From: Cystobacter fuscus
GTDB lineage: Bacteria; Myxococcota; Myxococcia; Myxococcales; Myxococcaceae
Length of the DNA stretch: 32,000 bases
Assembly: GCF_044360685.1 (NCBI RefSeq)
Contig: NZ_CP043491.1
Span: 7,499,542-7,531,541 of the forward strand
Direction of reading: 5' to 3'
Made by a program: the position numbers and the translations under genes. The first letter of the stretch is position 1. Each line of letters starts with the position of its first letter. Shown here one piece after another: positions 4,765 to 30,014 of this stretch. The notes under the pieces were generated by a model. The model was not told where the DNA came from. It saw only the letters and a program-made list of their open reading frames with translations, and searched no databases.

Positions 4765-4781
4765 TTCGTTCCCCCTGGGGC

Positions 4782-10859: not shown

Positions 10860-11389
10860 CAGAAGTCGAGCCCCACCTGCGCGGGAATGCCCTTCTCGAA
10901 GGGATGGCGCACGTTGCGCATCTCGGTGACGAGCTCCGCCGCCGCCACCAGGGGCTCCGGAGCGGAGCGCCCGGTGATGATCACATGCACGTGGGAGGGG
11001 CGTGCCGCCAGCGCCTCCATCACCTCGTCCACGGGGACGAAGCCGTAGTTGAGCACGTACGTCAGCTCATCGAGCACCACCACCTCGTGCTCGCCGCTCG
11101 TCATCAACCGCCGGGCCTCGGCCCACGCCTCCTGGGCGGCCCGCTTGTCCCGGGAGATGTCCTCGCTCTCCCAGGTGAAGCCCCGTCCCATGGTGAGGAA
11201 GACGAGCCCGGGAATGCTCTCCGCGTAGGTGCGCTCGCCCGTCTTCCACTTGCCCTTGATGAACTGCACCACCGCGGGCTTCATCCCCCGGCCGAGCGCG
11301 CGGAACACCACGCCGAGCGCGGCCGTGGTCTTCCCCTTGCCATCTCCCGTGTAGACGACCAGCAGTCCCTTCGTCGGTCTCGCGTTCAT
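10859..11389 (-). CDS. cobO: cob(I)yrinic acid a,c-diamide adenosyltransferase (CobA/CobO/BtuR type)
   Basis: ORF 10859..11593 trimmed to ATG 11389..11387, which overlaps the upstream stop (ATGA). 176 aa with YTGDGKGKTTAALG, VVQFIKG, VVLDELTY and ITGR motifs. Confidence 0.9.
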   Translation of the reverse strand: MNARPTKGLLVVYTGDGKGKTTAALGVVFRALGRGMKPAVVQFIKGKWKTGERTYAESIPGLVFLTMGRGFTWESEDISRDKRAAQEAWAEARRLMTSGEHEVVVLDELTYVLNYGFVPVDEVMEALAARPSHVHVIITGRSAPEPLVAAAELVTEMRNVRHPFEKGIPAQVGLDF

Positions 11390-12714
11390 GTCCCACGCTC
11401 CTGTCGTTCGAACCACGAGAGGCGCTCGCGCAGCCGCACCACCTCGCCCACCACCACCAGGGCCGGCGGCCCCAGCACGTTCTGCTCCCGCACCCGCTCG
11501 GCGAGCGTCTCCAGGGTGCCCACCACCACCACCTGCTCGGGCGAGGTGGCCGCGGCGATGTAGGCCGCGGGCGTCTGGGGGCTGCGTCCACACTCCACCA
11601 GCCGGGCCAGGTTGGCCGCGAGCTTCCGGGTGGCCATGAAGAGCACCAGCGTGCCCGCGGCCACGCCCAGCTTCTCCCAGTTCGTGAGGCTGCGAGGCCC
11701 CTCGAGGTCGTGCCCCGTGACGAAGGAGACGTCGGAGGCGTACTGCCGGTGGGTGAGCGGGATGCCGGCGCAGGCGGCGGCTCCGAGCGCGGCCGAGATG
11801 CCGGGCACCACCTCGTAGGCAATGCCCGCCTCGAGCAACTCCTCCGCCTCCTCACCGCCTCGCCCGAAGATGAACGGATCTCCCTGCTTCAAGCGCACCA
11901 CGTGCCGCCCGGCGCGGGCCCGCTCGAGCACCGCCGGGTGCAGCCGGTAGCCCGCCTGGGTGGAGCCCTGGTTGCGGTGGCCCACGAGGATGCGTTCCGC
12001 CTGGGGGCCGATCTCCGCGAGCACCGCCGGGGGGATGAGGGCGTCGTAGGCCACCACCTCCGCCTGTTGCAGCAGGGTGCGCGCCCTCACGGTGAGCAGT
12101 CCCGGATCGCCCGGCCCCGCGCCCACCAGGGACACGAAGCCGCCCCGGCGCTCGTCCCGCCCACGCCCGAGCGCCTCCTCGCAGAAGCGCACCCGCTCCT
12201 CCAGCGAGGCGCTCGAGTCCGGAACGAAGTGCAACCGCGAGGCTGAGACGGAGCGGCGCAGGAGCGACTCGAGGACGAGCTGGTAGCGCATCTCGTCCAT
12301 CGGGCTGTCACTCCGGACGCCGTCCCGCTCATAGGGGATGACGCCCCAGGGAAGGACGAAGACGGCGTCGTAGTGGCCCCCGGGCGCTGGAGACTCGAAG
12401 AACTCCGGGATGAGCTCCGCGCACCCGTGCTGGAGCGCATAGGCGGCGAAGTCCGTGGCGCAGTTGTCCGCCACGAAGCCCTCGTGCCGCTCCTCCTCGC
12501 GCCGCCGGCGCACGGACCACAATTCCCGGAGCACCCGCGCGCGCTCGGGCACGGGCAACTGCGCCAGGCGCGTGCCGGTGCGCAGGACGAACTCCCGCGT
12601 CTCCTCGGGGACAAGGGGCAGCCCGAGGCGGCTCGCCAGCGCGTTCACGAGCGTCGTCTTCCCCACCCCGGCCGCGCCGGTGATGGCAATGCGCCACGGC
12701 CGCTCAGGGCGCAT
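11386..12714 (-). CDS. cobA: fusion protein: N-terminal P-loop NTPase/kinase-like domain (NadR C-terminal / AAA_28-like) plus C-terminal uroporphyrinogen-III C-methyltransferase (SUMT)
   Basis: A single 442-aa ORF with no internal stop. Residues 1-190 carry Walker A ITGAAGVGKTT, VPEETREF, FVADNCATDFAAY, YDAVFVLPWGVIPYERDGVR and LEERV. Residues 195-442 carry LVGAGPGDPGLLT, RLKQGDPFIFGRGGEE and VVPGISAALGAAA, the tetrapyrrole methylase fold. Confidence 0.85.
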   Translation of the reverse strand: MRPERPWRIAITGAAGVGKTTLVNALASRLGLPLVPEETREFVLRTGTRLAQLPVPERARVLRELWSVRRRREEERHEGFVADNCATDFAAYALQHGCAELIPEFFESPAPGGHYDAVFVLPWGVIPYERDGVRSDSPMDEMRYQLVLESLLRRSVSASRLHFVPDSSASLEERVRFCEEALGRGRDERRGGFVSLVGAGPGDPGLLTVRARTLLQQAEVVAYDALIPPAVLAEIGPQAERILVGHRNQGSTQAGYRLHPAVLERARAGRHVVRLKQGDPFIFGRGGEEAEELLEAGIAYEVVPGISAALGAAACAGIPLTHRQYASDVSFVTGHDLEGPRSLTNWEKLGVAAGTLVLFMATRKLAANLARLVECGRSPQTPAAYIAAATSPEQVVVVGTLETLAERVREQNVLGPPALVVVGEVVRLRERLSWFERQERGT

Positions 12715-13471
12715 CTTCCGTCCCCTTCCGGAAGCGATGGGTGAAGGTCGGGTCGTACAGGCGCGAGTTGGCGAAGTCCTTCGCCTCCAGCACCTCGCCC
12801 ACCAGGATCATCGCGGTCGCGTTGATGCGCTCGGCGCGCACCTTGTCGCCAATGTCCGCCAGCGTGCCGCGCACCACCTTCTGATCCGGCCAGGTGGCCT
12901 TCTGCACCACCGCGACGGGACAGTCCGGCCCGTAGGAGGGCAGCAGCTTCTCCACCACGTCACGGATGAGGCCCGCGCTGAGGAAGAGCGCCAGGGTGGC
13001 ACGGTGGCGCGCCAGATCCTCCAGCTTCTCTCCCTCCGGCATGAGGGTGCGTCCCTCGGCGCGGGTGACGATGACCGTCTGCGACAGCTCGGGCAGCGTC
13101 AGCTCCTTGCCCAGCACCGCAGCCGCGGCGGTGAAGGAGGACACCCCCGGGATGATCTCGTAGGGAATGCCGAGCTCGACGAGCCTGCGCATCTGCTCCG
13201 CGGTGGAGCCGAAGATGGACGGATCTCCCGTGTGCACGCGGGCTACGTCCTGATCCGCGGCATGGGCCTCCTTGAGGACGTCGATGATCTGCTCGAGCGT
13301 CATGGACGAGGAGTCGAGCACCCGCGCATCCGGCCGGGCCCGGGCGATGACCGCCTGCGGGACGAGCGAGCCGGTGTAGAGCACCACGGGGCACTGCTCG
13401 ACGAGCTCGGCCCCGCGCACGGTGATGAGCTTCGGATCTCCGGGTCCGGCACCGATGATGTAGACCTTCAT
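12704..13471 (-). CDS. cbiF: cobalt-precorrin-4 C11-methyltransferase
   Basis: 255 aa with IIGAGPGDPKLITV, HTGDPSIFG and IIPGVSSFTAAAA. GGAG SD lies in the 10-nt gap after orf131. Confidence 0.92.
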   Translation of the reverse strand: MKVYIIGAGPGDPKLITVRGAELVEQCPVVLYTGSLVPQAVIARARPDARVLDSSSMTLEQIIDVLKEAHAADQDVARVHTGDPSIFGSTAEQMRRLVELGIPYEIIPGVSSFTAAAAVLGKELTLPELSQTVIVTRAEGRTLMPEGEKLEDLARHRATLALFLSAGLIRDVVEKLLPSYGPDCPVAVVQKATWPDQKVVRGTLADIGDKVRAERINATAMILVGEVLEAKDFANSRLYDPTFTHRFRKGTEDAP

Positions 13472-13481
13472 TCTCTTCTCC

Positions 13482-13877
13482 TCACGAGCAGCGCAGGACG
13501 GAGTCGCGCACCAGGTCCCAGACGTGTCCGGGCACGAGCCCCAGCCAGCGGGCGTCCGTTTCCGGCCGGGCCTCGTGCTCGGTGACGAGCCGCCACAGCC
13601 GCTCCGACACCGAGCCGTTGCGGCGGATGACCAGCCGCTCGAAGAGCAGCCGCGCCAGGGCCTCCCCCTCGAGCTCCATCACCAGCAGCGGCGCGGCCAC
13701 CTCCACCGGGCGCACCGGCGAGAGCCGCACGTAGGGCAGCTCCACCCCGGGAAGCTGAGCGGGCGGCTCGAAGCCCGCCGCGGCCCAGTCACACGGCTCC
13801 TTGAGATCTCCCACCAGGAAGAACGCTCCCTCGGTGGAGGCGAGCAACGCACCCGCCAGACGTCCCACGCGTGCCAT
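13482..13877 (-). CDS. hypothetical protein (orf131) embedded between cbiH and cbiF
   Basis: 131-aa ORF. Hand-read codons are strongly GC3-biased like the neighbours. It starts 3 nt after the cbiH stop and stops 10 nt before the cbiF start. No recognisable motif. Confidence 0.6.
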   Translation of the reverse strand: MARVGRLAGALLASTEGAFFLVGDLKEPCDWAAAGFEPPAQLPGVELPYVRLSPVRPVEVAAPLLVMELEGEALARLLFERLVIRRNGSVSERLWRLVTEHEARPETDARWLGLVPGHVWDLVRDSVLRCS

Positions 13878-13880
13878 GGT

Positions 13881-14708
13881 TCAAACCTCCTCTTCGCGAA
13901 CGACGAGTGAACGGCCCGGCTGCTGCCCCGGGAGCACATCTCCCTCGAGGGTGTACTTCCGCGTGTAGCCTCGAGGCGTCACCATGTAGCCCTCGAAGAA
14001 GAAGGTGTGGGAGTTGCCCACGATGACCGTGGTCAGCATGCCGATCTCGTAGTCCAGGAAGTGATCGAGGTCGCTCATCACCACCTTCTCCCCCTCGCGG
14101 TAGGCGCCCTTCACCAGCGCCACGGGAGTGGAGCCCTCGCGGTAGCGGCGGATGATGGAGTGGGCCTCCACGATCTGCCGGGTGCGCCGCCCGCTCGCGG
14201 GGTTGTAGAGCGAGATGACGAAGTCGGACGACGCGGCGGCCTCGATGCGTTTGGCGATGACGGCCCACGGCGTGAGCAGATCCGACAGGGAAATGGTGCA
14301 GCTGTCGTGGACCAGTGGAGCCCCCACGCGCGAGGCACAGGAGTTGGCGGCGGTGATGCCGGGCACCAGGTTGAGCGTGGGGGAATCCCCGCGCTTCCAA
14401 CCGATCTCCCGCAGCACCTCGAAGACGAGCCCCGCCATGCCGTAGACGCCCGCATCCCCGGAGGAGACGAGCACCACGTTGGCACCGGCCCGAGCACGCT
14501 CCACCGCGGAGCGGGCCCGGCCGATCTCCTCCGTCATGCCCGTTTGCACCACTTCCTTGCCCTCGAGGAGGTGGTGCACGAGCTTGATATAGGTGCGGTA
14601 GCCCACCACCACCTGGGCCTTGTGGATGGCCTCCAGGGCGGCGGGGGTGACGTGGGCGCCATCGCCCGGGCCAATTCCAACGACAGACAGGATGCCTCCC
14701 TCAGCCAT
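13881..14708 (-). CDS. cbiH: cobalt-precorrin-3B C17-methyltransferase
   Basis: 275 aa with VVGIGPGDGAHVT, VSSGDAGVYGMAG, LVPGITAANS and ISLSDLLTPW. Its start overlaps the cbiG 3' end by 8 nt. Confidence 0.92.
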   Translation of the reverse strand: MAEGGILSVVGIGPGDGAHVTPAALEAIHKAQVVVGYRTYIKLVHHLLEGKEVVQTGMTEEIGRARSAVERARAGANVVLVSSGDAGVYGMAGLVFEVLREIGWKRGDSPTLNLVPGITAANSCASRVGAPLVHDSCTISLSDLLTPWAVIAKRIEAAASSDFVISLYNPASGRRTRQIVEAHSIIRRYREGSTPVALVKGAYREGEKVVMSDLDHFLDYEIGMLTTVIVGNSHTFFFEGYMVTPRGYTRKYTLEGDVLPGQQPGRSLVVREEEV

Positions 14709-15840
14709 GGGCGGGCTCCTTTCGAGGGGAATGAGGAATGCGCGCGACGGCGAACGTCATGGAGCGTCCGGCGCCGGGCTCGGTGTAGATCTGCTTGCGG
14801 ACGAGCAACTCGGAGGCTCCAGCGGCGAGCAACGCCGACGGCTCGGCCACGCCGCGGGTGCCCACGTGCCGCTTCACCGTCTCCGACGGCGTGGGAACGG
14901 GCACCGCGTCCAGCTCGGCGGCCGGGTACGTCTGGAGCGCCCAGCCATGTTTCTGGCACAGCGCCAGCAGCGCGGGCTCATCGGCCTTCAAGTCCACGGT
15001 GGCCACCGCCTTCACCGAGGCGGGAGACAGCAGGGCCTGGGCGAGCAGTTGGGTCACGCCCCGCTCCACCAGCTCCTCCGGGGTGCCCCGGTCACAGCCG
15101 ATGCCCAACACCAGACTGCGGGGCCGGTAGATGACGGCCTTCTCCCATTGGGCGCGGTGCGTCTCGCGGATGTCGCGATCGGTGGCGATGAGGAGCATCT
15201 CCCACGCCGCCGGATCCACCCCATCGAGAGAGCGCGTGTAGCGCACGCCCGGAGGCAGCGGCTTGTCCTCGGGCCACCAGGAGGGCTCGCCCGCCTCCTG
15301 GACGAAGAGCACCGGGGCCTCGTTCACCACGGCGGCGCAGCCCCGGGTGACGTTGCGCTCCAGATCATCCAGCCGCCAGCCGAGCTCCCGCCCGAGGATG
15401 TCCACCGTGAGGGTGCCCCGCACGTCCGAGGCGGTGGTGACCACCGGGGTGGAGCCGAGCACGCCGGCCACCCGCTCGGTGAAGGCATTGCCCCGGCCCA
15501 CGTGTCCCGACAGCACGCAGATGGAGAAGCGCGCGGCGTCATCGACGCACACCACCGCCGGATCCACCTTCTTGTCCTCGAGGAGCGGAGCAATCATGCG
15601 CACCACCGCGCCCACGCTGATGATGAAGATGTGGCAGTCGTAGGCGGTGAAGGTGCGCGACAGGGTGGGCCCCATGGGCAGGGGCATCGGCAGGGCGCCC
15701 GCGGGGGCCTTGGCCATGAGCTTCTCGGAGACGTACAGCTCCGCGCCCGGCAACCCCGCGAGGAGCCGCTGGGCGATGCCCAACCCGTGCAGGGTGATGG
15801 CGTAGACGGCGTAGGGCTTGCGTGCCGGGGGCAGGCTCAC
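14701..15840 (-). CDS. cbiG: cobalt-precorrin-5A hydrolase
   Basis: ORF 14701..15930 trimmed to GTG 15840..15838, which overlaps the cbiL stop (GTGA). Has an N-terminal CbiG domain (IISVGAVVRMIAP, LSGHVGGNA-like), a middle domain and a C-terminal LGIGCDRG...TVDLKADE CobE-like domain. Confidence 0.88.
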   Translation of the reverse strand: MSLPPARKPYAVYAITLHGLGIAQRLLAGLPGAELYVSEKLMAKAPAGALPMPLPMGPTLSRTFTAYDCHIFIISVGAVVRMIAPLLEDKKVDPAVVCVDDAARFSICVLSGHVGRGNAFTERVAGVLGSTPVVTTASDVRGTLTVDILGRELGWRLDDLERNVTRGCAAVVNEAPVLFVQEAGEPSWWPEDKPLPPGVRYTRSLDGVDPAAWEMLLIATDRDIRETHRAQWEKAVIYRPRSLVLGIGCDRGTPEELVERGVTQLLAQALLSPASVKAVATVDLKADEPALLALCQKHGWALQTYPAAELDAVPVPTPSETVKRHVGTRGVAEPSALLAAGASELLVRKQIYTEPGAGRSMTFAVARIPHSPRKEPAHG

Positions 15841-16601
15841 CGAGCCACCTCCGCCGTCTGGGCGAAGCGACCGGCGAGCACGCCGCTGCGATCCTTCTTC
15901 GCCACCATCACCATGGAGAAGTAATCGCACTTGTCGTTGCGGATGCTGCGCAGGTCGCGCACCACCTTCTCCTGCCCGGTGGAAGCCCGCGACACGTAGA
16001 CGGCGCGATCGAGCAAGCCCTCACGCTCGAGTGCCTCCACCACCTGGGGCATGACCGAGCTCACCTTCATCAGCAGCACGGTGTCGAAGTCGCGCAGCAC
16101 GCGGGTGAGGTCCTCCACCCCATAGGTGGCCGGCAGGACGGCGATGCGCTCCTGGCCATCGGCCACCGGCACCTGCACCGCCGCGGGCACGGCGGTGATC
16201 GAGGAGACCGCGGGCACCACCTCGGTGCGCGTCCCGGGGAAGCGCTGGGGCACCTCCGCCAGGAGGTAGATGAAGGTGCTGTAGACGAGCGGATCCCCTT
16301 CCGTGATGAAGGCCACCTTCTTGCCCGCGGCCAGCCGAGGGGCGAGCTGCGCGTAGGCTTCCTCCCAGGCGGGACGCAACCGCTCGGGATCCTTCGTCAT
16401 CGGGAAGGTGAGGAAGAGCCGCTCCTGGCCGGGCACCTCGCCCACGTTCTCCTTGGCGATGCGCCAGGCGAGCGACTCGTCGTAGACCGAGCGCCGGGGG
16501 ATGGCGATGACGTCCGCCGAGCGGAGCGTGTTCACCGCCCGGAGCGTCATCAGATCCGGCGCCCCCGGCCCCACTCCCACGCCAATCAACACGCCACTCA
16601 T
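15837..16601 (-). CDS. cbiL: cobalt-precorrin-2 C20-methyltransferase
   Basis: ORF 15837..17270 trimmed to ATG 16601..16599, which overlaps the cbiET stop (ATGA). 254 aa with GVGVGPGAPDLMTLRA, ITEGDPLVYSTF and VVPAVSSITA. Confidence 0.88.
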   Translation of the reverse strand: MSGVLIGVGVGPGAPDLMTLRAVNTLRSADVIAIPRRSVYDESLAWRIAKENVGEVPGQERLFLTFPMTKDPERLRPAWEEAYAQLAPRLAAGKKVAFITEGDPLVYSTFIYLLAEVPQRFPGTRTEVVPAVSSITAVPAAVQVPVADGQERIAVLPATYGVEDLTRVLRDFDTVLLMKVSSVMPQVVEALEREGLLDRAVYVSRASTGQEKVVRDLRSIRNDKCDYFSMVMVAKKDRSGVLAGRFAQTAEVAR

Positions 16602-17848
16602 GCCTCTTCTCCCTGTGCTGCCGCGGGCCGGGTGGCCGCGAAGATGTGGATGGGGTTTTGCGCCTCGTAACGGAGGTAGTGCGCGAGCGGCTCGCCGCGG
16701 GACACGTTGAGCATCGTCACGTCCGGAGTGATTCCGTACGAGCGGAAGGCCGCGTAGGCCTCGGCCACGTTGTCCAGGGTGATGGCGTTGACCACCAGCC
16801 GGCCGCCCTCGCGCAGGCGCTTGAAGGCCACGTCGATGATGTCGCGCATGCTGCCCTTGCTGCCGCCGACGAAGACGGCATCCGGCGCATCCAGTCCCTC
16901 GAGGGCCTCCGGGGCGCGCCCCGCGATGACGCGCACGTTGTCCACCCCATGGGCGAGCGCGTTTTCCCGGCACAAGCTCACACCCTCCGGGTCCACCTCG
17001 ATGGCGAAGACCCGCCCCTTGGGAGCGAGCATCGCCGCCTCGATGCCCACCGAGCCCGAGCCCGCGCCGATGTCCCACACCACGCTGTCGGGGCGGATCT
17101 CCAACTGGGCCAGGGACAACAGGCGCACCTCGCGCTTGGTGATGAGCCCCTTCTTGGGCATGCGCTTGGCGAAGGCGTCCTCGTGGAGGAAGGACATGCG
17201 CGGCGGTGGGCGCCAGCTCGGATCCGTGCGCAGGAGGACGAGCACGTTGAGGGGCCCGATGTCCGTGCACTCCGCGAGCGACTCCAACATGAAGCAGCGG
17301 ATGCGCTCCTCCGGATTGCCGAGGCTCTCGCAGACCCAGGCCGTGAAGCCGCGCACGCCGTGCTCCAGCAGGTGGCGGGCCAGCGCCGGGGGCGAGTTCT
17401 CACCGTCGGTGAGCAGGGCCACCTTGGCCAGCAGACGCAGCCGCGTGCACAGCCCCTCGCGCGGGCGGCCGTGCACGGAGATGACCTCGGCATCCTCCCA
17501 GGACACGCCGATGCGCCCGAAGGCGAGCTGCACCGAGGACGGATGGGGAATGAACTCCACGTGCTCGGCGCCCACCTTCCGGGCGACCTGCGCGCCGATC
17601 CCGAAGAAGAGCGGATCCCCCGAGGCGAGCACACACACCTGATTCTCCAGGGCGAGCTCGGCCACCCGCTCCAGCGTCGGGCCGATGCCGCCACTGAAGG
17701 AGAGGCGCTCCCCGGAGAACTGGGGGAAGAACTCCAGGTGACGCTTGCCGCCGACCAGCACCCGGGCCTGCGCCACCGCGTTGGCCGCGCGCGCCGACAA
17801 ACCCAGACAACCGTCGTCTCCAATGCCCACCACCACCACCGGCTTCAT
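16598..17848 (-). CDS. cbiET: bifunctional cobalt-precorrin-7 C5-methyltransferase / cobalt-precorrin-6B C15-methyltransferase (decarboxylating), CbiE-CbiT fusion (CobL-like)
   Basis: 416 aa. The N-terminal half is a tetrapyrrole methylase (VVGIGDDG, LASGDPLFFG). The C-terminal half is a class I SAM methyltransferase (ITKREVR, VWDIGAGSGSVGIEAA, VFVGGS). Confidence 0.9.
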   Translation of the reverse strand: MKPVVVVGIGDDGCLGLSARAANAVAQARVLVGGKRHLEFFPQFSGERLSFSGGIGPTLERVAELALENQVCVLASGDPLFFGIGAQVARKVGAEHVEFIPHPSSVQLAFGRIGVSWEDAEVISVHGRPREGLCTRLRLLAKVALLTDGENSPPALARHLLEHGVRGFTAWVCESLGNPEERIRCFMLESLAECTDIGPLNVLVLLRTDPSWRPPPRMSFLHEDAFAKRMPKKGLITKREVRLLSLAQLEIRPDSVVWDIGAGSGSVGIEAAMLAPKGRVFAIEVDPEGVSLCRENALAHGVDNVRVIAGRAPEALEGLDAPDAVFVGGSKGSMRDIIDVAFKRLREGGRLVVNAITLDNVAEAYAAFRSYGITPDVTMLNVSRGEPLAHYLRYEAQNPIHIFAATRPAAAQGEEA

Positions 17849-18498
17849 GCCTTCACCCCATCCGCGCTGAGCATCAGCAGCGCGTGGATGATGGACACGG
17901 CGATGGTGCTGCCCCCCTTGCGGCCACGCACCGCGATGTGCGGCACGGACAACTCGAGCACCGCCTCCTTGGACTCCGCCGCCGACACGAAGCCCACCGG
18001 CACGCCAATCACCAGCGCCGGACGAGCCCCCTCCTCCTTCACCAGCCGGGCCACCTCCAGCAGCGCGGTCGGCGCGTTGCCCACCGCCACGATGGCGCCC
18101 GTGAGCAGCCCCAGCCGGTGCGCCTTGCGCATGGACTCGATGGCCCGGGTGGAACCCGCCTCGCGCGCCGCGGCGATGACGTCCTCATCCGAGATGAAGC
18201 AGTGCGTCCGGCAGCCATAGGAGGCGAGCCGCTCCTCGTTGAGGCCGGCGAGGATCATCTTCACGTCGGCCAGCACCGGGCTGCCGGCACGCAGGGCGCG
18301 AATGCCCTCGGCGATGGCATCGGGAGAGAAGCGGGCCAGCTCCTTGAACTCGAAGTCCGCGGTGGCGTGGATGATGCGCCGCACCACCTGCCACTCGCCC
18401 GGCGAGTAGGAATGAGGACCGGCCTCGTTGTCGATGATGGAAAAGCTCTCGTCTTCGATGCGACGCCCGAGCGTCGTCATCTGCCGCATGTCGTTCAT
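17845..18498 (-). CDS. cbiC: cobalt-precorrin-8 methylmutase
   Basis: ORF 17845..18843 trimmed to ATG 18498..18496, which overlaps the cbiD stop (ATGA). 217 aa with IIHATADFEF, VAVGNAPTAL and GVPVGFV..AESK motifs. Confidence 0.92.
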   Translation of the reverse strand: MNDMRQMTTLGRRIEDESFSIIDNEAGPHSYSPGEWQVVRRIIHATADFEFKELARFSPDAIAEGIRALRAGSPVLADVKMILAGLNEERLASYGCRTHCFISDEDVIAAAREAGSTRAIESMRKAHRLGLLTGAIVAVGNAPTALLEVARLVKEEGARPALVIGVPVGFVSAAESKEAVLELSVPHIAVRGRKGGSTIAVSIIHALLMLSADGVKA

Positions 18499-19604
18499 GC
18501 CGCGTGTCTCCTCTCGGGGTATTGCCCGAGCAAGGTGCCGTTGAAATCCACGAGGACGGCGCGAACCTCGAGCGGTCCCCCCGCGTGACGGGTGCACTGC
18601 TCGACGACGCGCTGGCACACCAGCCTTGTGATGTGGGTGAGGCCGTTGGCCGCGCACAGCTCGAGCACGTGGCGGGCGGTGTTGGCGGCCCGGATGTCGG
18701 CCACCAGCGTCTCCGGCGCCCCCGCCTCGGCGGCCAGGGTGGCCAGCAGCTCCATGTTCACCTCGGAGCCGGCCGCGTGCGTCTGCATGCGCCCATCGGC
18801 CATCTTGGACAGCTTGCCCATCATCCCCACGATGTGGACGCACGCCGCCTGACGCCGGGCGGCATGGCGGATGGCCACGCCGATGAAGTCGCCCACCTGG
18901 ATGAAGGTCTCCTCCGGCAGGTGGGGCAGGAGGCCCATGGCGTACTTCTCCGACTTGCCTCCCGTGGTGAAGACGAGCTCGGTGTTGCCGCGCGTCCGGG
19001 CCACGTCGATGGCCTGCACCACGCTCGCCTTGTAGGCGGACGTGGAGTACGGCCGGACGATGCCGCTGGTGCCGAGGATGGAGATGCCACCGAGGATGCC
19101 CAGGCGCGCGTTGAGCGTCTGCAGGGCCATCTCCTCACCTCGAGGGACGTGAATGGTGACGATGGCGCCCCGCCCCTCGGGCAGCTCCTCCAGCACCATG
19201 TCGGTGATGTTGCGGCGCGGCACCGGGTTGATGGCCGGACTGCCCACCTCGAGCCCCAACCCCTCCTTGGTGACAAGCCCCACGCCCTCGCCCCGCTCGA
19301 GCACCACCCGGCCTTCGTCGTCCGTCAGCCGCACCTCGGCGACCAGCTCCGCGCCGTGGGTGCAGTCCGGATCATCCCCGGCGTCCTTGATGACACTGCA
19401 AAGGGCCTTCTCCCCGTCCCACTCGCAACGGTGCAGGGCGAACGTCACCGTCTGCCGGTTGGGCAGCGTCGTCTCCACGTGAGTGAGACGCTCGCCACGC
19501 GCCAGCACGCGAGTGGCCGCCTTGGCGGCAGCGGCGGCACAGGCCCCGGTGGTGAAACCGGTGCGTGAGCCGCGCTTGTCCCGAGGAGGAGGCGCTTCGC
19601 TCAT
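18495..19604 (-). CDS. cbiD: cobalt-precorrin-5B C1-methyltransferase
   Basis: ORF 18495..19904 trimmed to ATG 19604..19602, which overlaps the upstream stop (ATGA). 369 aa with RTGFTTGACAAAAAKAA, KDAGDDPD.THG, GISILGTSGIVRPYS and TTGGKSE. Confidence 0.92.
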   Translation of the reverse strand: MSEAPPPRDKRGSRTGFTTGACAAAAAKAATRVLARGERLTHVETTLPNRQTVTFALHRCEWDGEKALCSVIKDAGDDPDCTHGAELVAEVRLTDDEGRVVLERGEGVGLVTKEGLGLEVGSPAINPVPRRNITDMVLEELPEGRGAIVTIHVPRGEEMALQTLNARLGILGGISILGTSGIVRPYSTSAYKASVVQAIDVARTRGNTELVFTTGGKSEKYAMGLLPHLPEETFIQVGDFIGVAIRHAARRQAACVHIVGMMGKLSKMADGRMQTHAAGSEVNMELLATLAAEAGAPETLVADIRAANTARHVLELCAANGLTHITRLVCQRVVEQCTRHAGGPLEVRAVLVDFNGTLLGQYPERRHAA

Positions 19605-20338
19605 CCCGCGGCCTTCTTGGAGGGATTGTTGAAGAAGGACTCCATCCGGATGGCCTCCATCGTCAGTCCGGACTCCACCAGGGCCTGCCGCAGCGGGCTC
19701 AACACCGCCCCATCCCCGACGAGGTAGACGCGCTCGGGCGCATGGGCGCGCGCGGCCTCCAGGGCCAACGCCTGGATGTGCGCGATGCGCTCCGGATGGC
19801 CCGGCGGCGGGCAGTCCTGGTGCTGGAAGCGGCAGCCCAGCGCCTCCACTTCCTCGCGGGCCTGCTCCGCGGGCAGGAACACCGTGGGCGACTCGGAGAA
19901 CCACAGCAGCCGCGTCCGCTCGCGCTGCGGGGCGAAGGCGCGGCCGTGCACCAGCCCCAGCGCGGCGGTGATGCCACTGTCGGTGGCCACCACCAGCGTG
20001 TTCCGAGGCGTGGAGTCATCCGGAAGGAAGCTGCCCCACGGTCCGCTGAACGGCAGCTCCGCGCCCACCGGTGCCTCGTGCAACATCGCCGAGCCAGAGC
20101 CCTCGGCGAGCCGATAGACACAGATGCGGAAGGTGCGCTGATCCGCGTCGCTCGACACCAGCGAGTAGGCACGCTTGTGCGCCTTGCCATCCGCGCGTGG
20201 CACGCCGGTGTTGAAGATGAGGTACTGGCCTCCGGTGAAGCCGAGTTCCTCCTCGCCCCGCAGTTGCAGGTGGAGGAGCCTCCCGCGCTCGCCCACGGGC
20301 GCGGAGGAGAGGATGCGAGCGGTGCGGGAGACGGCCAT
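19601..20338 (-). CDS. ferredoxin-NADP reductase family (FNR-like) FAD/NAD(P)-binding oxidoreductase
   Basis: 245 aa with the RAYSLVS (RxYS/T) FAD motif, GSGSAMLH, an NAD(P)-binding-like VVATDSGITAALG and a C-terminal YLVGDGAVL. GAGGGA SD lies 9 nt upstream of ATG 20338. Confidence 0.8.
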   Translation of the reverse strand: MAVSRTARILSSAPVGERGRLLHLQLRGEEELGFTGGQYLIFNTGVPRADGKAHKRAYSLVSSDADQRTFRICVYRLAEGSGSAMLHEAPVGAELPFSGPWGSFLPDDSTPRNTLVVATDSGITAALGLVHGRAFAPQRERTRLLWFSESPTVFLPAEQAREEVEALGCRFQHQDCPPPGHPERIAHIQALALEAARAHAPERVYLVGDGAVLSPLRQALVESGLTMEAIRMESFFNNPSKKAAG

Positions 20339-20342
20339 GGTG

Positions 20343-20717
20343 CTAGTCCCTCGGGTAGATTTCGTGGGTGAAGTCGTGCACCTCCTCGAGGTCGCGCCAC
20401 AGCCGATGGAGCGACTCGTTCTGGCGCTTCAGCTCCAGCTCCACCGACTTGGTCAGCACGAGGAGCGAGCGCAGGTAGGGCATCTTCGGATCATCCGCCC
20501 GGGTCGCGGAGACCTTCTCCTGCAACTCCACCAGGGAGGCATCGAAGAAGCGCAGCATGCCCGCCATGTCGCGCGCCTGCATCAGCGAGCGCACCGGCCC
20601 CGGCTTCTCCGCCGCGCTGCCCAGCTCGGCCAGCTCGTGCTGGCGCTCGGTGTCATCGTCCACTCCCAGGATGTTCATCAGCGACAACCGCAACGCCGCC
20701 AGCTCATGACAGGCCAT
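20343..20717 (-). CDS. hypothetical helical protein (orf124)
   Basis: This is the C-terminal, compositionally normal part of artefactual ORF 20343..22625. ATG 20717 is preceded by GAGGAG 8 nt upstream and lies 14 nt after the cbiX stop. The sequence MACHELAALRLSLMNILGV...LELKRQNESLHRLWRDLEEVHDFTHEIYPRD has heptad-like, charged helical character. No family recognised with confidence. Confidence 0.65.
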   Translation of the reverse strand: MACHELAALRLSLMNILGVDDDTERQHELAELGSAAEKPGPVRSLMQARDMAGMLRFFDASLVELQEKVSATRADDPKMPYLRSLLVLTKSVELELKRQNESLHRLWRDLEEVHDFTHEIYPRD

Positions 20718-20731
20718 GTGTGCTCTCCTCA

Positions 20732-21940
20732 CTACTGCATGATGTTGTCGACCAGGCGGGACACGAGGCGATCCCCCACCAGGTGCTCCTCCACGAGCTC
20801 CTGGGCATCCGCCTCGGTGACACCGCGATACCAGATGCCATCCGGATAGACGGCCACGGTGGGCCCCTCGCCACAGCGGCCCATGCAGGCCGTCCGGGTG
20901 ATGCGCACCGTGCGCCCCTTGCCCACTTCCTTGAGCTTGCGGCGCAGGGCCTCGATCAGCGCCACGCTGCCGCGCTCGGCGCAGTCGGCGTTGCCGCAGA
21001 CCAGCACGTGTTTCTCCATGGCGCGGTGGGCGTGCGGATGGGGCGCCGCCTGGGTGTGCGTCTCGCGGTGGCGGATGCTCCAGAGCAGCGCCTTGAGCCC
21101 ACCGACGTTCTTCTGGAGGCCCGCGAGCGGCACGCGGTACTGGCAGCCATCGCACGGCAGCGGCACCCCGCCCGCGAGCGCCTCCTCGATGCGCCGGTCC
21201 ACGTGTTGCACGAGCGGCGCCATGCTCCCGTCCGCCAGGTGCGGAGCCACCTCGGCGCGCAGCCACGGGTAACGCTCGGCGAAGAGGGCCACCTGGGCAT
21301 GGATCTTCTGCAGCAGCACCCCGGTGAAGAGGAGGTAGGGCGCCACCAGGATGCGCTCCGGCCGGGCCCGGGCCATCCACTCCAGCGCCTCTTCCAGCGA
21401 GGGCTTCGCGATACCGACGAAGGCCGGTTGCACCTGGGCGAAGCCCCTGCCCTCCGCGTAGAGGCGGGTCAGCTTGTAGAAGTCGCCATTGGCGTCCGGG
21501 TCCGACGAGCCACGCCCCAGCATCACCACCACCGTGCGCGCCGCGTCCTGGGGCGAGAGCGGTCCGGTGCGGGCCTGGGTGCGCTCGAAGGCCAGTTGCG
21601 CGAGGTCCGGATGGACGCCGAAGGCCTTCACCGCGAGGAAGCGCACGCCCGGGTGATTCTCGCGCGCCGTGGCAAGCGCCAGCGGAATGTCGTTCTTCAC
21701 GTGCTTCGCGGTGAAGAGGAAGAGCGGGACGACGAGCACCTCCGGCACCTCGGAGGCGATGGCGTCCAGCGCCTCGGGGAGGGCCGGCTCGGTGAGCTCC
21801 ACGAAGCCCAGGCCCACGCGCCGCTCCGGATGGGCCTCGCGGTAGGCGTCCACGAAACGGTGCACCTCGGCGATGGCCTGCGCATCGCGGCTGCCGTGTC
21901 CGACGAAGAGGATGCCGTGGTGGGAACGAGGAGTGCTCAC
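20732..21940 (-). CDS. cbiX: sirohydrochlorin cobaltochelatase, long form, fused to a C-terminal thioredoxin-like [2Fe-2S] ferredoxin domain
   Basis: ORF 20732..22060 trimmed to the GTG at 21940, which by the track frames overlaps the cbiO stop (GTGA). It has two CbiX repeats (ILFVGHGSRD ... VVMLGRGSSD). A CDGCQYR motif and the His-rich HRETHTQAAPHPHAHR segment follow. The last 95 aa read VLVCGNADC...CMGRCGEGP, the C-x4-C...C-x3-C pattern of NuoE/thioredoxin-like 2Fe-2S ferredoxins. Confidence 0.85.
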   Translation of the reverse strand: MSTPRSHHGILFVGHGSRDAQAIAEVHRFVDAYREAHPERRVGLGFVELTEPALPEALDAIASEVPEVLVVPLFLFTAKHVKNDIPLALATARENHPGVRFLAVKAFGVHPDLAQLAFERTQARTGPLSPQDAARTVVVMLGRGSSDPDANGDFYKLTRLYAEGRGFAQVQPAFVGIAKPSLEEALEWMARARPERILVAPYLLFTGVLLQKIHAQVALFAERYPWLRAEVAPHLADGSMAPLVQHVDRRIEEALAGGVPLPCDGCQYRVPLAGLQKNVGGLKALLWSIRHRETHTQAAPHPHAHRAMEKHVLVCGNADCAERGSVALIEALRRKLKEVGKGRTVRITRTACMGRCGEGPTVAVYPDGIWYRGVTEADAQELVEEHLVGDRLVSRLVDNIMQ

Positions 21941-22797
21941 GGGTGCGCTTCCTGGCTGGTGGGGACGAGGAGGGGGAGAAGGCGCCGGGCGGCCTCGGCG
22001 ACCGTGAGGGGCGGCGGGGCCTCCCCCGACCCGGGAAGGAAGGGAGCGAGCTGGGCCCACAACTCGGCGACGGCCGGTGCGCGCAGATGCGCCCGCGCCA
22101 GCAGCGCCGCGTCCCGGAAGACCTCCGCGGGAGCACCGAAGGCGAGCAGCCGCCCCTCGCCGAGAATGGCCACCCGGTCGGCGAAGAAGGGCACTTCGTC
22201 GGTGGCATGGGTGGAGACGACCAGGGCCACGTCGCGCTCGCGCGCCAGCCGCCGCAGCAGTCCCGCCGTCTCGCGCTCGCCCACCGGATCCAACCCGGCG
22301 GTGGGCTCATCGAGCAGCAGCACCGCCGGATGCATCGCCAGCACGCCCGCGAGACACGCCCGCTTCTTCTCCCCGAAGCTGAGCGCCTCGATGGGGCGCT
22401 CCGCCAGCTGGGCCAGCCCGGTGGCCGCGAGCGCCTCGTCCACCCGGGCCCGCACCGCGTCCGGGGCGAGGCCCTGATGCATCGGCCCGATGGCCACGTC
22501 CTCGCCGACCGTGGTGCCGAACAGCTGGTCATCCGGATTCTGGAAGGCGAGCGCCAGGCCCGCTTCGGTCCGGGCCACCGCTCCACGCGGGGCCACCTGT
22601 CCGCGCAGCCACACCTTGCCGGCACGCTCCGGAACCAGCCCCGCGAGGCCGCGCAGCAACGTCGTCTTGCCGCACCCGTTGGCGCCGAGCAGCGCGACCA
22701 CCTCTCCCGGCCGCACCTCGAGCGTCAGGCCGGAGAGGATGGCGGGGCCGCCGGGGTTTCCCACCGCGAGCGCCTCGAGTGCGAGCGCCGCCTTCAC
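21937..22797 (-). CDS. cbiO: cobalt ECF/ABC transporter ATPase component
   Basis: ORF 21937..23523 trimmed to GTG 22797..22795, which overlaps the cbiQ stop (GTGA). Has Walker A GANGCGKTT, Q-loop, signature LSFGEKKR, Walker B LLLDEPTAGLD and an H-loop STH. Confidence 0.9.
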   Translation of the reverse strand: MKAALALEALAVGNPGGPAILSGLTLEVRPGEVVALLGANGCGKTTLLRGLAGLVPERAGKVWLRGQVAPRGAVARTEAGLALAFQNPDDQLFGTTVGEDVAIGPMHQGLAPDAVRARVDEALAATGLAQLAERPIEALSFGEKKRACLAGVLAMHPAVLLLDEPTAGLDPVGERETAGLLRRLARERDVALVVSTHATDEVPFFADRVAILGEGRLLAFGAPAEVFRDAALLARAHLRAPAVAELWAQLAPFLPGSGEAPPPLTVAEAARRLLPLLVPTSQEAHP

Positions 22798-23426
22798 GGC
22801 CGCTCTCCCGGGGACGGGAGGTGGGCACCACGGCAGCCCCGGGCGGCCATCGCCTCGGCGGTGGCGTGGGCCTGGTCGAACGCGCGGACCAGGGTGAGCC
22901 CGCCGAGCGCCCCAAGCGAATGCACGCCGCGGCGCACGCCCCGGTAGCCGAGGCGGAGGATCTGCGCCTCGCGCGCGGTGTGGGCCGCCCGCTCGAGGAC
23001 GGTGGCGTAGCGCACCGCGAGCGCGAGCACCTCGGCGAGCGGGGCCGGCACCCGCCACGCGCGCAGCGCGCCCACCAGCGCCCAGGGCGGAGTGAGCGCG
23101 ATGAGGAGGCCGAAGACGGTGGCCCCCGCGGCGACCCGCGTCCCCAGCACCAGCCCGAGTCTCCAGGCTCCACTCGCCTCCGGCCGCAAAAGCCCGTGCA
23201 GGGCCCAGAGCGCCAGCCCCGAGAAGAGGGCCACTCCGAGGCGGCGGAACAACACCCCTGCCCGCTCGCCCACCGCGAGCGAGGCGAGGAGGGCCAGCGT
23301 AGCCACCGCCGAGGCGGTGTACGGGGCGGGCCCGGCGAGCGCCACCAGGAGCGCGAACAACGCGCCCCCCAGCTTGAGGCGGGCATCCAGCCCGGCCACC
23401 CGCTCGCGCAGGGCCACGCGGCTCAC
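22794..23426 (-). CDS. cbiQ: cobalt ECF transporter transmembrane (T) component
   Basis: ORF 22794..23501 trimmed to GTG 23426..23424, which overlaps the cbiN stop (GTGA). A 210-aa polytopic protein with LDARLKL near the N-terminus and the ARG-containing C-terminal helices (AMAARG) typical of CbiQ/EcfT. Confidence 0.8.
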   Translation of the reverse strand: MSRVALRERVAGLDARLKLGGALFALLVALAGPAPYTASAVATLALLASLAVGERAGVLFRRLGVALFSGLALWALHGLLRPEASGAWRLGLVLGTRVAAGATVFGLLIALTPPWALVGALRAWRVPAPLAEVLALAVRYATVLERAAHTAREAQILRLGYRGVRRGVHSLGALGGLTLVRAFDQAHATAEAMAARGCRGAHLPSPGERP

Positions 23427-23641
23427 GCCCGCTCTCCCGTCTCGACGAACAGGGAGCGGTAGAGATAGCCAAGCAAGAATCCCCCCACGAGCCCGGCACA
23501 CAGGAAGGCGAAGAGGAGGACATCCCCTTCCAGCGGAATCAGGGGCGGCTGAGGAGAGCGTCCCGCGGCCTCGGCGAACGGGAGCACGACGTGCTCGTCG
23601 ACACCCGGCCAGCCCGAGGCCTCGGCGAGGAGCGGCTTCAT
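23423..23641 (-). CDS. cbiN: short CbiN-like cobalt transport accessory protein (single predicted TM helix)
   Basis: A 72-aa reading frame at the end of ORF 23423..24427. ATG 23641..23639 overlaps the cbiM stop (ATGA). The sequence GVDEHVV...PLIPLEGDVLLFAFLCAGLVGGFLLGYLYR resembles the conserved loop plus second TM helix of CbiN, but no N-terminal TM helix is present. Confidence 0.6.
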   Translation of the reverse strand: MKPLLAEASGWPGVDEHVVLPFAEAAGRSPQPPLIPLEGDVLLFAFLCAGLVGGFLLGYLYRSLFVETGERA

Positions 23642-24450
23642 GGCGTGGCGGGTGCGGCGGGAAGCGCGTGGAACTTCAAGAGGGCGGGCCGGCGGCGGGA
23701 GATGAAGACGACGGCGCCGGCGGTGAAGGCCCCCTCGAGCAATCCGAGCGGAAGCTGGGTGGGGAGGAAGGAGAGCAGCAGGGTGCCCAGCGTGGTGCTC
23801 AGCGGTTGGGCGCCGTGCAGCGCCGAGGCCAGCTCGAAGGACGTCATGGCGTAGGTGGCCCAGTCGGAGAACATGCCCGCGGCGAAGGCCGCCACTCCGA
23901 GCGAGGCGCGCAGGGAGCGCAGTCCGTGGAAGATGGCGTAGCCGACGAAGCCGCCCACCACGCCCATGGACCAGATGTCGGCGCCCAGGGTGGTGAGCCC
24001 TCCGTGGGCGAGGAAGAGCGCTTGCAGCAACAGCGCCACGAACGTCACCAGCACGGTCATCACCGGGCCGATGAGCACGGCGGCGAGCCCCGTGCCACAC
24101 GGGTGCGAGCAGGTGCCGATGATGGGAACCGGCACGGGCATGCAGGAGACGACGAAGACCGCGGCGGCGAGCATCGCCACGAAGGGCGAATAGAGCGGGC
24201 TCTGGGCCATGCGCTGGCGCAACCGCGTGACGCCCAGCGCGAGCAAGGGCAGCACGGAGAGCGTCCAGCCCGCGGCCCACCCGAAGGGAAGGATGCCCTC
24301 CGCCAGGTGCATGGCATGCGCGGGATGAGGCAGCAGCAACAGGACGAGTGCCGCGAGCCCCGCGCTCGGAGGGAGAGGTGCTGATTGAAGGCAGGCCTGG
24401 ACGCAATGCCGGAGGACGGCACCACACCCACGCCCGGAGAAACCCGGCAT
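23638..24450 (-). CDS. cbiM: cobalt ECF transporter substrate-capture (S) component
   Basis: 270 aa. A 46-aa leader ends in a signal-peptidase-like AHA site directly before MHLAEGILP, the conserved Met-His N-terminus of mature CbiM/NikM. Seven hydrophobic segments. ATG 24450 lies 6 nt after GAGCGAGG and directly downstream of the riboswitch. Confidence 0.9.
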   Translation of the reverse strand: MPGFSGRGCGAVLRHCVQACLQSAPLPPSAGLAALVLLLLPHPAHAMHLAEGILPFGWAAGWTLSVLPLLALGVTRLRQRMAQSPLYSPFVAMLAAAVFVVSCMPVPVPIIGTCSHPCGTGLAAVLIGPVMTVLVTFVALLLQALFLAHGGLTTLGADIWSMGVVGGFVGYAIFHGLRSLRASLGVAAFAAGMFSDWATYAMTSFELASALHGAQPLSTTLGTLLLSFLPTQLPLGLLEGAFTAGAVVFISRRRPALLKFHALPAAPATP

Positions 24451-24487
24451 GGCAACCTCGCTCTCAATCCACGGAGAGATGGGTCGA

Positions 24488-24685
24488 ACAGCCCTGGGTA
24501 GGTCTCCTGGCTCGTGGATTCAGAGCGCCTGACGGCGTTCAGCGCCACCTCCACCTTCCCCGACGCCGAGGCATCGAGTGGTGACTTCGGAGGTAGCTCC
24601 CCACTGACAGTGGCGGGACCGCGCCGGACTCACACCGGCTTCCCTGTTATGCCCGTGATAGCGGGCACCCCTGGCTATGGATTCA
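24488..24685 (-). promoter_or_regulatory. cobalamin (AdoCbl) riboswitch
   Basis: The minus strand reads ...CCAGGGGTGCCCGCTATCACGGGCATAACAGGGAAGCCGGTGTGAGTCCGGCGCGGTCCCGCCACTGTCAGTGGGG...GAATCCACGAGCCAGGAGACCTACCCAGGG. This contains the conserved GGGAAGCCGGTG.GA.TCCGGCGCGGTCCCGCCACTGT core and the B12 box GCCAGGAGACCT.CC. A CTCTC-N8-GAGAG hairpin downstream overlaps the cbiM SD region. Confidence 0.92.
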
Positions 24686-24694
24686 ATTGTCGGG

Positions 24695-25404: not shown

Positions 25405-25472
25405 GAATCGTCAAGCCCCTGGCAAGCCCTTTCTCGCGGCGCTCCATACCACCGCTCGCCCTGCCCGGCGGC

Positions 25473-28832: not shown

Positions 28833-28915
28833 GTGTGCCCAGACGACGACTATCCATCGCGAGGAACCGTGCCAGCAAGCGCCGTTCACCACCTACGCCT
28901 CTAACTGGCCCGGCC

Positions 28916-28960
28916 CTGAAAACACGAACGCCCGGGAGCCCCAACGAGGGCCACCGGGCG
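28916..28960 (-). terminator. candidate intrinsic terminator downstream of the phasin-like gene
   Basis: The minus strand reads CGCCCGG-tggccctcgttggggct-CCGGGCG followed by TTCGTGTTTTC. This is a GC-rich 7-bp outer stem (with extra inner pairs) and a T-rich tail, 29 nt after the TAA stop at 28989. Confidence 0.5.
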
Positions 28961-28988
28961 GCTTCGTCTCCAACGGGGGATTCGCAGC

Positions 28989-29849: not shown

Positions 29850-29882
29850 GTGTTTGAAACCTCCGCAAGGGTAAGTACCCCA

Positions 29883-29911: not shown

Positions 29912-30014
29912 CCCCCCATGACGCGATGAGACGAGAATCAGGCGGCTTCCGACTCCAGCGGGCCGGCGTGTTAGCTCTGGTGCCTCCTCTCCCACCCCTC
30001 CGGAGAACCCATCC

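Follow-up and report, generated by a model that had tools for sequence, protein, structure and literature searches.

In a stretch of 32,000 nucleotides from Cystobacter fuscus (contig NZ_CP043491.1, positions 7,499,542 to 7,531,541; hereafter, the window), we have characterized an open reading frame (ORF) of 245 amino acids, the product of which is a divergent member of the ferredoxin-NADP reductase (FNR) superfamily dedicated to the biosynthesis of cobalamin (B12). The gene for this FNR-like protein belongs to an operon for a nearly complete cobalt-early B12 route, in which every corrin-ring enzyme is encoded except CbiJ, the cobalt-precorrin-6A reductase. It is placed between the gene for a protein of the family DUF3209 and cbiD, and the gene upstream of DUF3209 encodes CbiX, a cobaltochelatase fused with a [2Fe-2S] ferredoxin domain (Table 1). 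As a tentative reading, in which our confidence stays somewhat below even, the FNR-like protein would be the dedicated electron-input reductase of a module, composed of CbiX-[2Fe-2S] and DUF3209, that performs the missing reduction, by which cobalt-precorrin-6A is turned into cobalt-precorrin-6B. DUF3209 was overlooked in the original prediction, namely an earlier annotation made from the sequence of the window alone, and is the component common to all of the CbiJ-less lineages that we compared as bearers of the module (Thermus, haloarchaea, and L082 and L088, which are full-length loci of the myxobacterial type).

The start codon of the FNR-like gene is found 4 nucleotides past the stop of the DUF3209 gene, and its TGA (19603-19601) overlaps with the ATG of cbiD (19604-19602) as ATGA; the position, length, and stop/start overlap of the ORF were thus as originally predicted. 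While the window is very GC-rich and contains many spurious overlapping ORFs, the frame of the FNR-like ORF is genuine, because its product matches FAD_binding_6 in Pfam (PF00970; residues 13-104, 43.4 bits with the cutoff at 21.1), belongs with 154 homologues that are 230-270 amino acids long (the nearest, at 97%, from Cystobacter fuscus), and is modeled by AlphaFold2, with an alignment of 42 sequences as the input, at a predicted local distance difference test score (pLDDT) of 93.8 and a predicted template modeling score of 0.91. The model is composed of a beta-barrel and a Rossmann-like domain: residues 1 to ~105 constitute the barrel for binding flavin adenine dinucleotide (FAD) with the motifs GGQY, KRAYS, GxxS, and SGPWG, and residues ~112-245 constitute the Rossmann-like domain with non-canonical ATDSGITA and GDG motifs and a C-terminal ESFFN. 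The FAD-side motifs (GGQ, KRAYS, GxxS, and SGPWG) are intact and invariant in the family; indeed, K55-R56-A57-Y58-S59, which conforms to the RxY(S/T) signature of FNR proteins, is invariant in the 42 homologues. All of the three motifs named in the original prediction (RAYSLVS, GSGSAML, and ATDSGITAALG) were present and conserved, with G80 invariant and S83 nearly so in the second and with D120 invariant in the third; D209 is likewise invariant in the family. The description of ATDSGITAALG as NAD(P)-binding-like, nonetheless, held only in its position. The motif does occupy the place of the canonical GGTGxxP, but a profile alignment with BenC and cytochrome b5 reductase revealed that GGTGIAP is changed to TD(S/T)GITA and CGP to (V/S/A)GD, with the loss of the catalytic-site cysteine, and no NAD_binding family of Pfam (NAD_binding_1/6) was matched by the FNR-like protein. 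FAD binding is predicted from the FAD-side motifs, and NAD(P)H oxidation is presumed.

In the NCBIfam search, the FNR-like protein gave weak full-length matches to the reductase modules of Hmp (the top one), BenC, MmoC, and PaaE, all of which were far under the equivalog cutoffs. When the model was compared with the PDB by Foldseek, 263 matches were obtained at E<=1e-3, and all of the best 50 listed were FNR-family reductases or reductase modules with template modeling (TM) scores of 0.64-0.79 and identities of 15-23%; these include flavohaemoglobins (6o0a, 1gvh), GcoB, Fpr (1fdr), NqrF, a siderophore-interacting reductase (6geh), T4moF, CarAd, and BenC. The best of these structural neighbors (flavohaemoglobin, GcoB, BenC, T4moF, CarAd, and Fpr; TM 0.7-0.79) are reductase modules by which protein-bound haem or [2Fe-2S] centers are fed, and no close relative was found among the solved structures. 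Matches were also not obtained with the Fpr equivalog of NCBIfam (PRK10926; 10.8 bits, the cutoff being 390), with PF08021 (FAD_binding_9) and PF04954 (SIP) in Pfam, or with CbiJ/CobK (PF02571) in either Pfam or the CbiJ profile described below.

Among known systems, the reductases of multicomponent oxygenases and P450 systems (BenC 1krh, T4moF 4wqm, CarAd 7c3a, GcoB 5ogx, and MmoC) have the same two-domain FAD/Rossmann fold and are the best matches in sequence and structure; in these enzymes, electrons are transferred singly from FAD to [2Fe-2S], and the [2Fe-2S] domain is here encoded two genes away on CbiX. These reductases, however, possess their own fused plant-type ferredoxin and a canonical NADH site (GGTGxxP/CGP), whereas the FNR-like protein is stand-alone with TDSGITA/GD, shares 15-23% identity with them, and is encoded in a B12 operon instead of an oxygenase operon. 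In the flavohaemoglobin Hmp, the reductase domain of which was the top match of both Foldseek and NCBIfam, the FNR module reduces a metal-tetrapyrrole held in a helical domain, and a similar relation might be imagined between the FNR-like protein and the helical DUF3209. Unlike Hmp, the FNR-like protein has no globin domain, the fold of DUF3209 is unrelated to globins, and tetrapyrrole binding by DUF3209 is speculation by analogy. Ferric-chelate reductases of the SIP/ViuB type, represented by the match to 6geh, are also metal-chelate reducers with the FNR fold, but the FNR-like protein lacks both of their Pfam domains as well as any siderophore context; PF08021 was precomputed on 2 of the 120 listed homologues, and some homologues are annotated as siderophore-interacting.

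The dedication of this family to B12 clusters was evident from its genomic neighborhoods. When metagenomes were scanned with an alignment of the FNR-like family, 80 loci were obtained. DUF3209 was directly upstream of the FNR-like gene in all of the 70 loci that had sufficient sequence, and cbiD was no more than 1 kb downstream in 50 of the 50 testable ones. Scanning one genome per species with a DUF3209 alignment gave another 80 loci, which are those most similar to the DUF3209 of the window and in which the bacterial clade with the FNR-like gene is over-represented; they span Myxococcota, Nitrospirota, Binataceae, Planctomycetota, Leptospirales, and one gammaproteobacterial metagenome-assembled genome (MAG). 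CbiX with the ferredoxin domain (Cx4C...Cx3C) was found in all of these genome loci, which corroborates the original proposal of the ferredoxin domain two genes upstream as a plausible partner, and the FNR-like gene was found in 76 of them. The gap from cbiX to DUF3209 has a median of 19 nucleotides and that from DUF3209 to the FNR-like gene a median of 9 nucleotides (less than 200 nucleotides in 74/76). In Sorangium, insertions of 1-7 kb are present between cbiX and DUF3209, and the block of DUF3209, the FNR-like gene, and cbiD is intact. The loci of divergent homologues, namely those in a Nitrospira MAG (43% identity), Sorangium cellulosum (47%), and chromosome II of Leptospira interrogans (34%), are all arranged in the order of CbiX-ferredoxin, DUF3209, FNR-like, cbiD-C-ET-L-G-H, an ORF of ~135 amino acids, and cbiF, with no CbiJ. 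We also noticed that the Nitrospira MAG has an extra ORF of 125 amino acids between the FNR-like gene and cbiD (L001:10723-11100), which weakly matches ChuX/HutX (haem-binding) in Pfam (E = 0.004). The window itself has DUF3209 upstream, cbiD downstream, CbiX-[2Fe-2S] in the cluster, and no CbiJ. Because the operon is headed by a cobalamin riboswitch, the FNR-like gene is translationally coupled on both sides, and the synteny is strict in the 70 and 50 loci above, this flavoprotein is considered to be dedicated to the B12 pathway, as had been proposed originally.

The absence of CbiJ was examined with a hidden Markov model (HMM) constructed from three annotated CbiJ/CobK proteins (E. eligens, Sulfurospirillum, and R. 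etli; plasmid-collection records). This HMM and phmmer --max were run against all six-frame ORFs of at least 40 amino acids with the filters off; three control clusters were hit by the HMM at 1e-108 to 1e-132, and nothing better than E ~0.2 was found in the window or in the loci L001-L006, the best E in the window being above 1. Pfam detected no CbiJ/CobK on any assigned or flanking gene of the window, either. A cryptic CbiJ in the window is thus ruled out by these scans, in support of the earlier claim that no precorrin-6x reductase is encoded there, although the accompanying claim that the strand is fully tiled by assigned genes was too strong; DUF3209 and an ORF of 131 amino acids between cbiH and cbiF have no assigned function. 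Among the 160 related loci (the 80 metagenome and 80 genome loci, each 1-20 kb and 1.9 Mb in total), CbiJ was again found in none (phmmer, E<=1e-5; HMM --max, E<=0.1), and neither was it in the Leptospira locus. The survey of neighborhoods that the original prediction called for therefore places the FNR-like family in cbi clusters without cbiJ.

In the plasmid collection, a single CbiJ query from a Firmicute hit at least 252 records as against 488 records bearing CbiC, these records being phylogenetically non-independent, and no CbiJ was found in the 33 Thermus or 7 Haloferax records with DUF3209, as judged indirectly from the counts per organism. Thermus and Haloferax are read as CbiJ-less because 33 and 7 records, if matching, would rank in the listed top ten. 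Deinococcus, which belongs to the same phylum as Thermus, was found in this collection to have CbiJ without DUF3209. Two "hypothetical" proteins in the Thermus cluster were considered as divergent CbiJ and ruled out; they are a coiled-coil/apolipoprotein-like protein and a TPR protein. Another CbiJ-less layout was seen in L006 (Acidovorax carolinensis plasmid pACP4.1, 11617-22060), a cobalt-early cbi cluster with no CbiJ, DUF3209, or FNR-like gene, in which a stand-alone NuoE-like [2Fe-2S] ferredoxin directly follows cbiH and a "BluB" of 374 amino acids is encoded.

Among the neighbors of the FNR-like gene, the one most tightly linked to it is DUF3209 (PF11483), a family to which PDB 2EHW (T. 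thermophilus TTHB059) belongs. The protein of the window was modeled as five helices (pLDDT 93.9), and the invariant residues of the family are M1-A2-C3, E5, R10, H27, E31, Y81, R83, H114, and H118, with C3 being usually followed by His. This residue pattern, in particular the H27/E31 and H114/H118 pairs, suggests a candidate metal or metallo-tetrapyrrole site. By tblastn, DUF3209 was found on the pTT27-type megaplasmids of Thermus (33 records), on haloarchaeal megaplasmids (16 records), and on Leptospira chromosome II, and, in bacteria as well as in haloarchaea, it always comes after a CbiX-[2Fe-2S] fusion. The Thermus locus is arranged as cbiD-C-ET-L-F-H-G followed by cbiX (367 amino acids, with the four ferredoxin cysteines), DUF3209, and cobA, with neither the FNR-like gene nor CbiJ. 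Also with neither of the two, the Haloferax locus is arranged as cbiH1, cbiH2, a 4Fe-4S ferredoxin, a hypothetical gene, CbiX-[2Fe-2S], DUF3209, and a PQQ-like beta-propeller. The haloarchaeal genes HVO_B0052-B0056 thus resemble the module of the window in that DUF3209 comes after CbiX-[2Fe-2S] in a CbiJ-less cobalt-early cluster and is followed by a gene for a putative redox protein; they differ in that the slot after DUF3209 is occupied by the beta-propeller instead of the FNR-like protein, that the cluster has a separate 4Fe-4S ferredoxin, and that CbiD is missing as well. In L082 and L088, furthermore, DUF3209 runs straight into cbiD with neither the FNR-like gene nor CbiJ.

In modules of the FNR family, electrons move singly from FAD to a ferredoxin, a flavodoxin, haem, or a metal chelate. 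In the reading that we favor, reducing equivalents, presumably from NAD(P)H, would be received by the FAD of the FNR-like protein and then be passed, one electron at a time, to DUF3209 and/or the [2Fe-2S] domain of CbiX, and the module would deliver two electrons for the conversion of cobalt-precorrin-6A to 6B as a ferredoxin-type bypass of the NADH-dependent CbiJ. The bypass might proceed through the redox-active cobalt, namely by stepwise electron delivery followed by protonation, which is chemically plausible because cobalt-early intermediates carry a redox-active metal. In Thermus, haloarchaea, and a few myxobacterial-type genomes, electrons would come from other reductases, and the haloarchaeal slot after DUF3209 is occupied by a different putative redox protein. 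While the donor, the acceptor, and the step served are what we infer, this electron-input role is the most economical reading because the FNR-like gene is coupled with DUF3209/CbiX-[2Fe-2S], occurs only in CbiJ-less clusters, and is translationally coupled to cbiD, the product of which is the substrate of CbiJ. A wider proposal, which is possible and which we hold more loosely, is that CbiX-[2Fe-2S], DUF3209, and, in most of the bacteria, the FNR-like protein constitute a previously unrecognized ferredoxin-driven cobalt-precorrin-6A reductase system in aerobic cobalt-early producers among Bacteria (Myxococcota, Nitrospirota, Leptospira, Thermus, and others) and haloarchaea, with the FNR-like protein as the input from NAD(P)H to ferredoxin and DUF3209 as a substrate- or metal-binding catalytic partner.

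Several observations weigh against this assignment. Thermus, haloarchaea, L082, and L088 have CbiX-ferredoxin and DUF3209 without CbiJ and also without the FNR-like gene, which makes the FNR-like protein dispensable or replaceable, so that no bypass is defined by it. The nucleotide-site motifs of the FNR-like protein are non-canonical with two invariant Asp residues, and because of these alterations NAD(P)H is no more than a presumed electron donor. Foldseek with the DUF3209 model returned 2EHW only and no informative structural relatives. The absence of CbiJ, furthermore, applies to clusters and replicons; the Cystobacter chromosome was not covered. Finally, C. fuscus, C. ferrugineus, and S. 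cellulosum were B12-dependent for CarH repression in laboratory media, and myxobacteria were stated to be unable to make B12 with an incomplete pathway (PMC9304148); the B12 pathway of C. fuscus and S. cellulosum may hence be incomplete or silent. In contrast to that report, we noticed that C. fuscus and S. cellulosum (L010, L053, L070) carry a near-complete cluster under the control of a riboswitch, and the call of an incomplete pathway on myxobacteria may rest on the CbiJ gap.

As the strongest of the alternatives, albeit an unlikely one, the redox module might serve an earlier need in chelation or ring contraction, with the CbiJ reaction left to an unlinked or unrecognized enzyme; cobalt-factor II/III might be reduced to the precorrin level before CbiH, or cobalt, the intermediates, and Fe-S centers might be kept reduced in aerobic hosts. 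An early role would fit with DUF3209 adjoining cbiX in every lineage (at the median distance given above in the genome loci, and likewise next to it in Thermus, Leptospira, and Haloferax), with the [2Fe-2S] ferredoxin standing alone directly after cbiH in the Acidovorax cluster, and with the recognized hosts (myxobacteria, Nitrospira, Leptospira, Thermus, and haloarchaea), which we take to be aerobes. Also, B. megaterium, a CbiJ-bearing organism, reportedly has a ferredoxin-type center on CbiX and an Fe-S CbiH, and cobalt-factor III is said to need reduction there before ring contraction. The CbiJ gap in more than 160 clusters would nonetheless stay unexplained, and the documented haloarchaeal gaps are CbiD and CbiJ but not early redox steps. 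In Sorangium, moreover, the pair of DUF3209 and the FNR-like gene stays with cbiD and not with cbiX, and it is cbiD to which the FNR-like gene is translationally coupled.

Quite unlikely is the possibility that the FNR-like protein alone is a non-orthologous CbiJ, which would reduce C18=C19 of cobalt-precorrin-6A at its flavin with NAD(P)H. The protein is indeed the sole pyridine-nucleotide-type oxidoreductase in a CbiJ-less operon, its gene is immediately upstream of and coupled to that of the enzyme making the substrate, and the remodeled nucleotide site with D120 and D209 could be a new substrate pocket. CbiJ/CobK and the FNR-like protein may serve the same step, and the latter occurs beside cbiD in CbiJ-less clusters; however, the two have no relation in sequence or fold, and CbiJ transfers a hydride directly from NAD(P)H, whereas a route of FNR and ferredoxin would supply electrons stepwise. 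We know of no FNR-family member that reduces a tetrapyrrole C=C bond by hydride transfer, and the closest structural relatives all act on protein-bound centers or metal chelates. Such a replacement, one of the two roles offered in the original prediction, is weakened by the CbiJ-less clusters without the FNR-like gene (Thermus pTT27, haloarchaea, L082, and L088).

Improbable, and to be ranked lower again, is the other role offered in the original prediction, that of a Co(II)-to-Co(I) reductase that would act on cob(II)yrinic acid a,c-diamide for CobO in place of Fpr/flavodoxin or CobR. FNR-type modules (Fpr/FldA, methionine synthase reductase) are known elsewhere to reduce the cobalt of cobalamins, the structural matches include E. 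coli Fpr (1fdr) and the siderophore-interacting reductase, and cobO is encoded in the same operon. The pair of Fpr and flavodoxin in Salmonella and E. coli and CobR in Brucella likewise represent flavoprotein-driven reductions in the B12 pathway, and Fpr is similar in structure to the FNR-like protein (TM 0.74, identity 16-18%). Fpr is nevertheless a housekeeping protein encoded outside of clusters, CobR is a member of an unrelated family, that of the HpaC-like flavin reductases, and both act at adenosylation, whereas the FNR-like gene is in the corrin-ring part of the operon. The gene never adjoins cobO but is always between DUF3209 and cbiD; cobO was counted in only 8 of the 80 20-kb loci, which is a weak count with a faulty reference sequence, and the link with DUF3209 and the CbiJ gap would be left unexplained. 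Very improbable, finally, is that the gene stands for a relic or a generic reductase with no pathway-specific role, left in a Cystobacter that makes no B12 because its pathway is non-functional, for which the B12 requirement in CarH repression would speak. Against this reading, the same gene order recurs in different phyla, where the ORFs are intact and their stops and starts overlap, the proteins share 40-97% identity over Myxococcota, Nitrospirota, Leptospirales, Binataceae, and Planctomycetota, the operon is under riboswitch control, and B12 autotrophy is reported for Leptospira, which carries the same cluster (PMC4758666).

Table 1. Positions of the FNR-like gene and associated features in the window
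Feature	Position	Strand	Evidence
FNR-fold FAD flavoprotein, 245 amino acids	19601..20338	(-)	Pfam, AlphaFold2, homologues
DUF3209 protein, 124 amino acids, all-helical; stop 4 nucleotides before the FNR-like ATG	20343..20717	(-)	
Long CbiX cobaltochelatase with C-terminal thioredoxin-like [2Fe-2S] ferredoxin domain	20732..21940	(-)	PF01257, Cx4C...Cx3C
cbiD, ATGA overlap (translational coupling) with the FNR-like gene	18495..19604	(-)	Pfam
Whole operon	2909..24450	(-)	Pfam on assigned genes
Cobalamin riboswitch at the head of the operon, directly upstream of cbiM	24480..24687	(-)	RF00174, 108 bits vs gathering score 31.5
Conserved ORF of 131 amino acids between cbiH and cbiF	13482..13877	(-)	no Pfam match

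The genes of the operon are arranged in the order of cbiM-(N)-Q-O, cbiX-fdx, DUF3209, FNR-like, cbiD, cbiC, cbiET, cbiL, cbiG, and cbiH, and then the 131-aa ORF, cbiF, AAA_28-SUMT, cobO, cbiA, cbiZ, cobU, cbiB, a cobD-type aminotransferase, cobQ, cobT, and cobS. The start codon of cbiX is probably GTG, which overlaps with the stop of cbiO as GTGA, and the 14 nucleotides from the stop of cbiX to the ATG of DUF3209 contain a GGAG-type Shine-Dalgarno sequence. Long CbiX proteins, that of the window included, have in common a PCDxCxYR motif, and their chelatase domain is joined to the ferredoxin domain by a His-rich linker ("ETHTQAxPHxHxH"); in the Acidovorax CbiX, CxxC and the His-rich tail are kept, and the ferredoxin domain is absent. 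The 131-aa ORF is present in 65 of the 80 DUF3209-type genome loci, and the clusters of Thermus and Haloferax lack it. Because its counterpart in L. interrogans is fused to the C-terminus of CbiH (L003:20036-21529, 497 amino acids), it probably represents a partner or accessory domain of CbiH; given this fusion and the absence from Thermus and Haloferax, we consider it unlikely to be a substitute for CbiJ. As other features of the operon, the uroporphyrinogen-III methyltransferase (SUMT) has an N-terminal AAA_28 P-loop domain (11386-12714, minus strand), while that of Nitrospira is instead fused to HEM4 (L001:18063-19538), and cbiZ, a salvage gene, is located inside this de novo operon (8782-10026). 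Just upstream of the riboswitch are genes for a BluB-like nitroreductase and a CobC-type phosphatase (24757-26108, minus strand), and the four large minus-strand ORFs at 26131-31964 (428, 501, 286, and 692 amino acids) had no Pfam match at E<=1e-4.

CbiJ has repeatedly been reported as missing in B12 makers, namely haloarchaea, Thaumarchaeota, Desulfoluna, and Leptospira. In haloarchaea, CbiD and CbiJ are two consecutive genome-wide gaps, for which four conserved but unassigned genes of the cluster, including that of the DUF3209 protein HVO_B0053 next to cbiX, were listed as candidates (Pfeiffer and Dyall-Smith 2021, PMC8305020). CbiJ was undetected in Thaumarchaeota and other archaeal producers (Doxey et al.), Desulfoluna is without cbiJ only and yet needs no added cobalamin (PMC7031245), and "alternative reductases" were invoked for the CbiJ gap in a paper of 2026. 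In Leptospira, the cob I/III cluster was described to include LB_163 "flavodoxin reductase", LB_164 "hypothetical protein", and LB_165 "ferredoxin-related protein" in a B12 pathway that is "nearly complete", with B12 autotrophy reported and no functional comment on LB_163-LB_165 (Fouts et al., PMC4758666); LB_163 is the FNR-like gene of Leptospira. In our literature search, no publication was found that gives a function to DUF3209 or the FNR-like family; DUF3209 or its Haloferax locus tag is mentioned in two papers, neither of which assigns a function. For Nitrospira, Thermus, and myxobacteria, the search gave no specific statement on cbiJ other than that of PMC9304148.

The CbiJ gap distorts the genome-based prediction of B12 producers, as exemplified by myxobacteria that were called unable to make B12, and the problem of the missing CbiJ is here narrowed to three conserved and co-located candidate genes with a testable division of labor. 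If the role in an earlier step were true instead, the module would still account for the use of the cobalt-early route by aerobes in spite of its sensitivity to oxygen. If the module indeed performs the reduction of cobalt-precorrin-6A, it would be a new enzyme system in a textbook pathway and an alternative reductase for engineered B12 production, and the calls of producers and auxotrophs would be corrected in soil, freshwater, and pathogen genomes such as those of Nitrospira and Leptospira.

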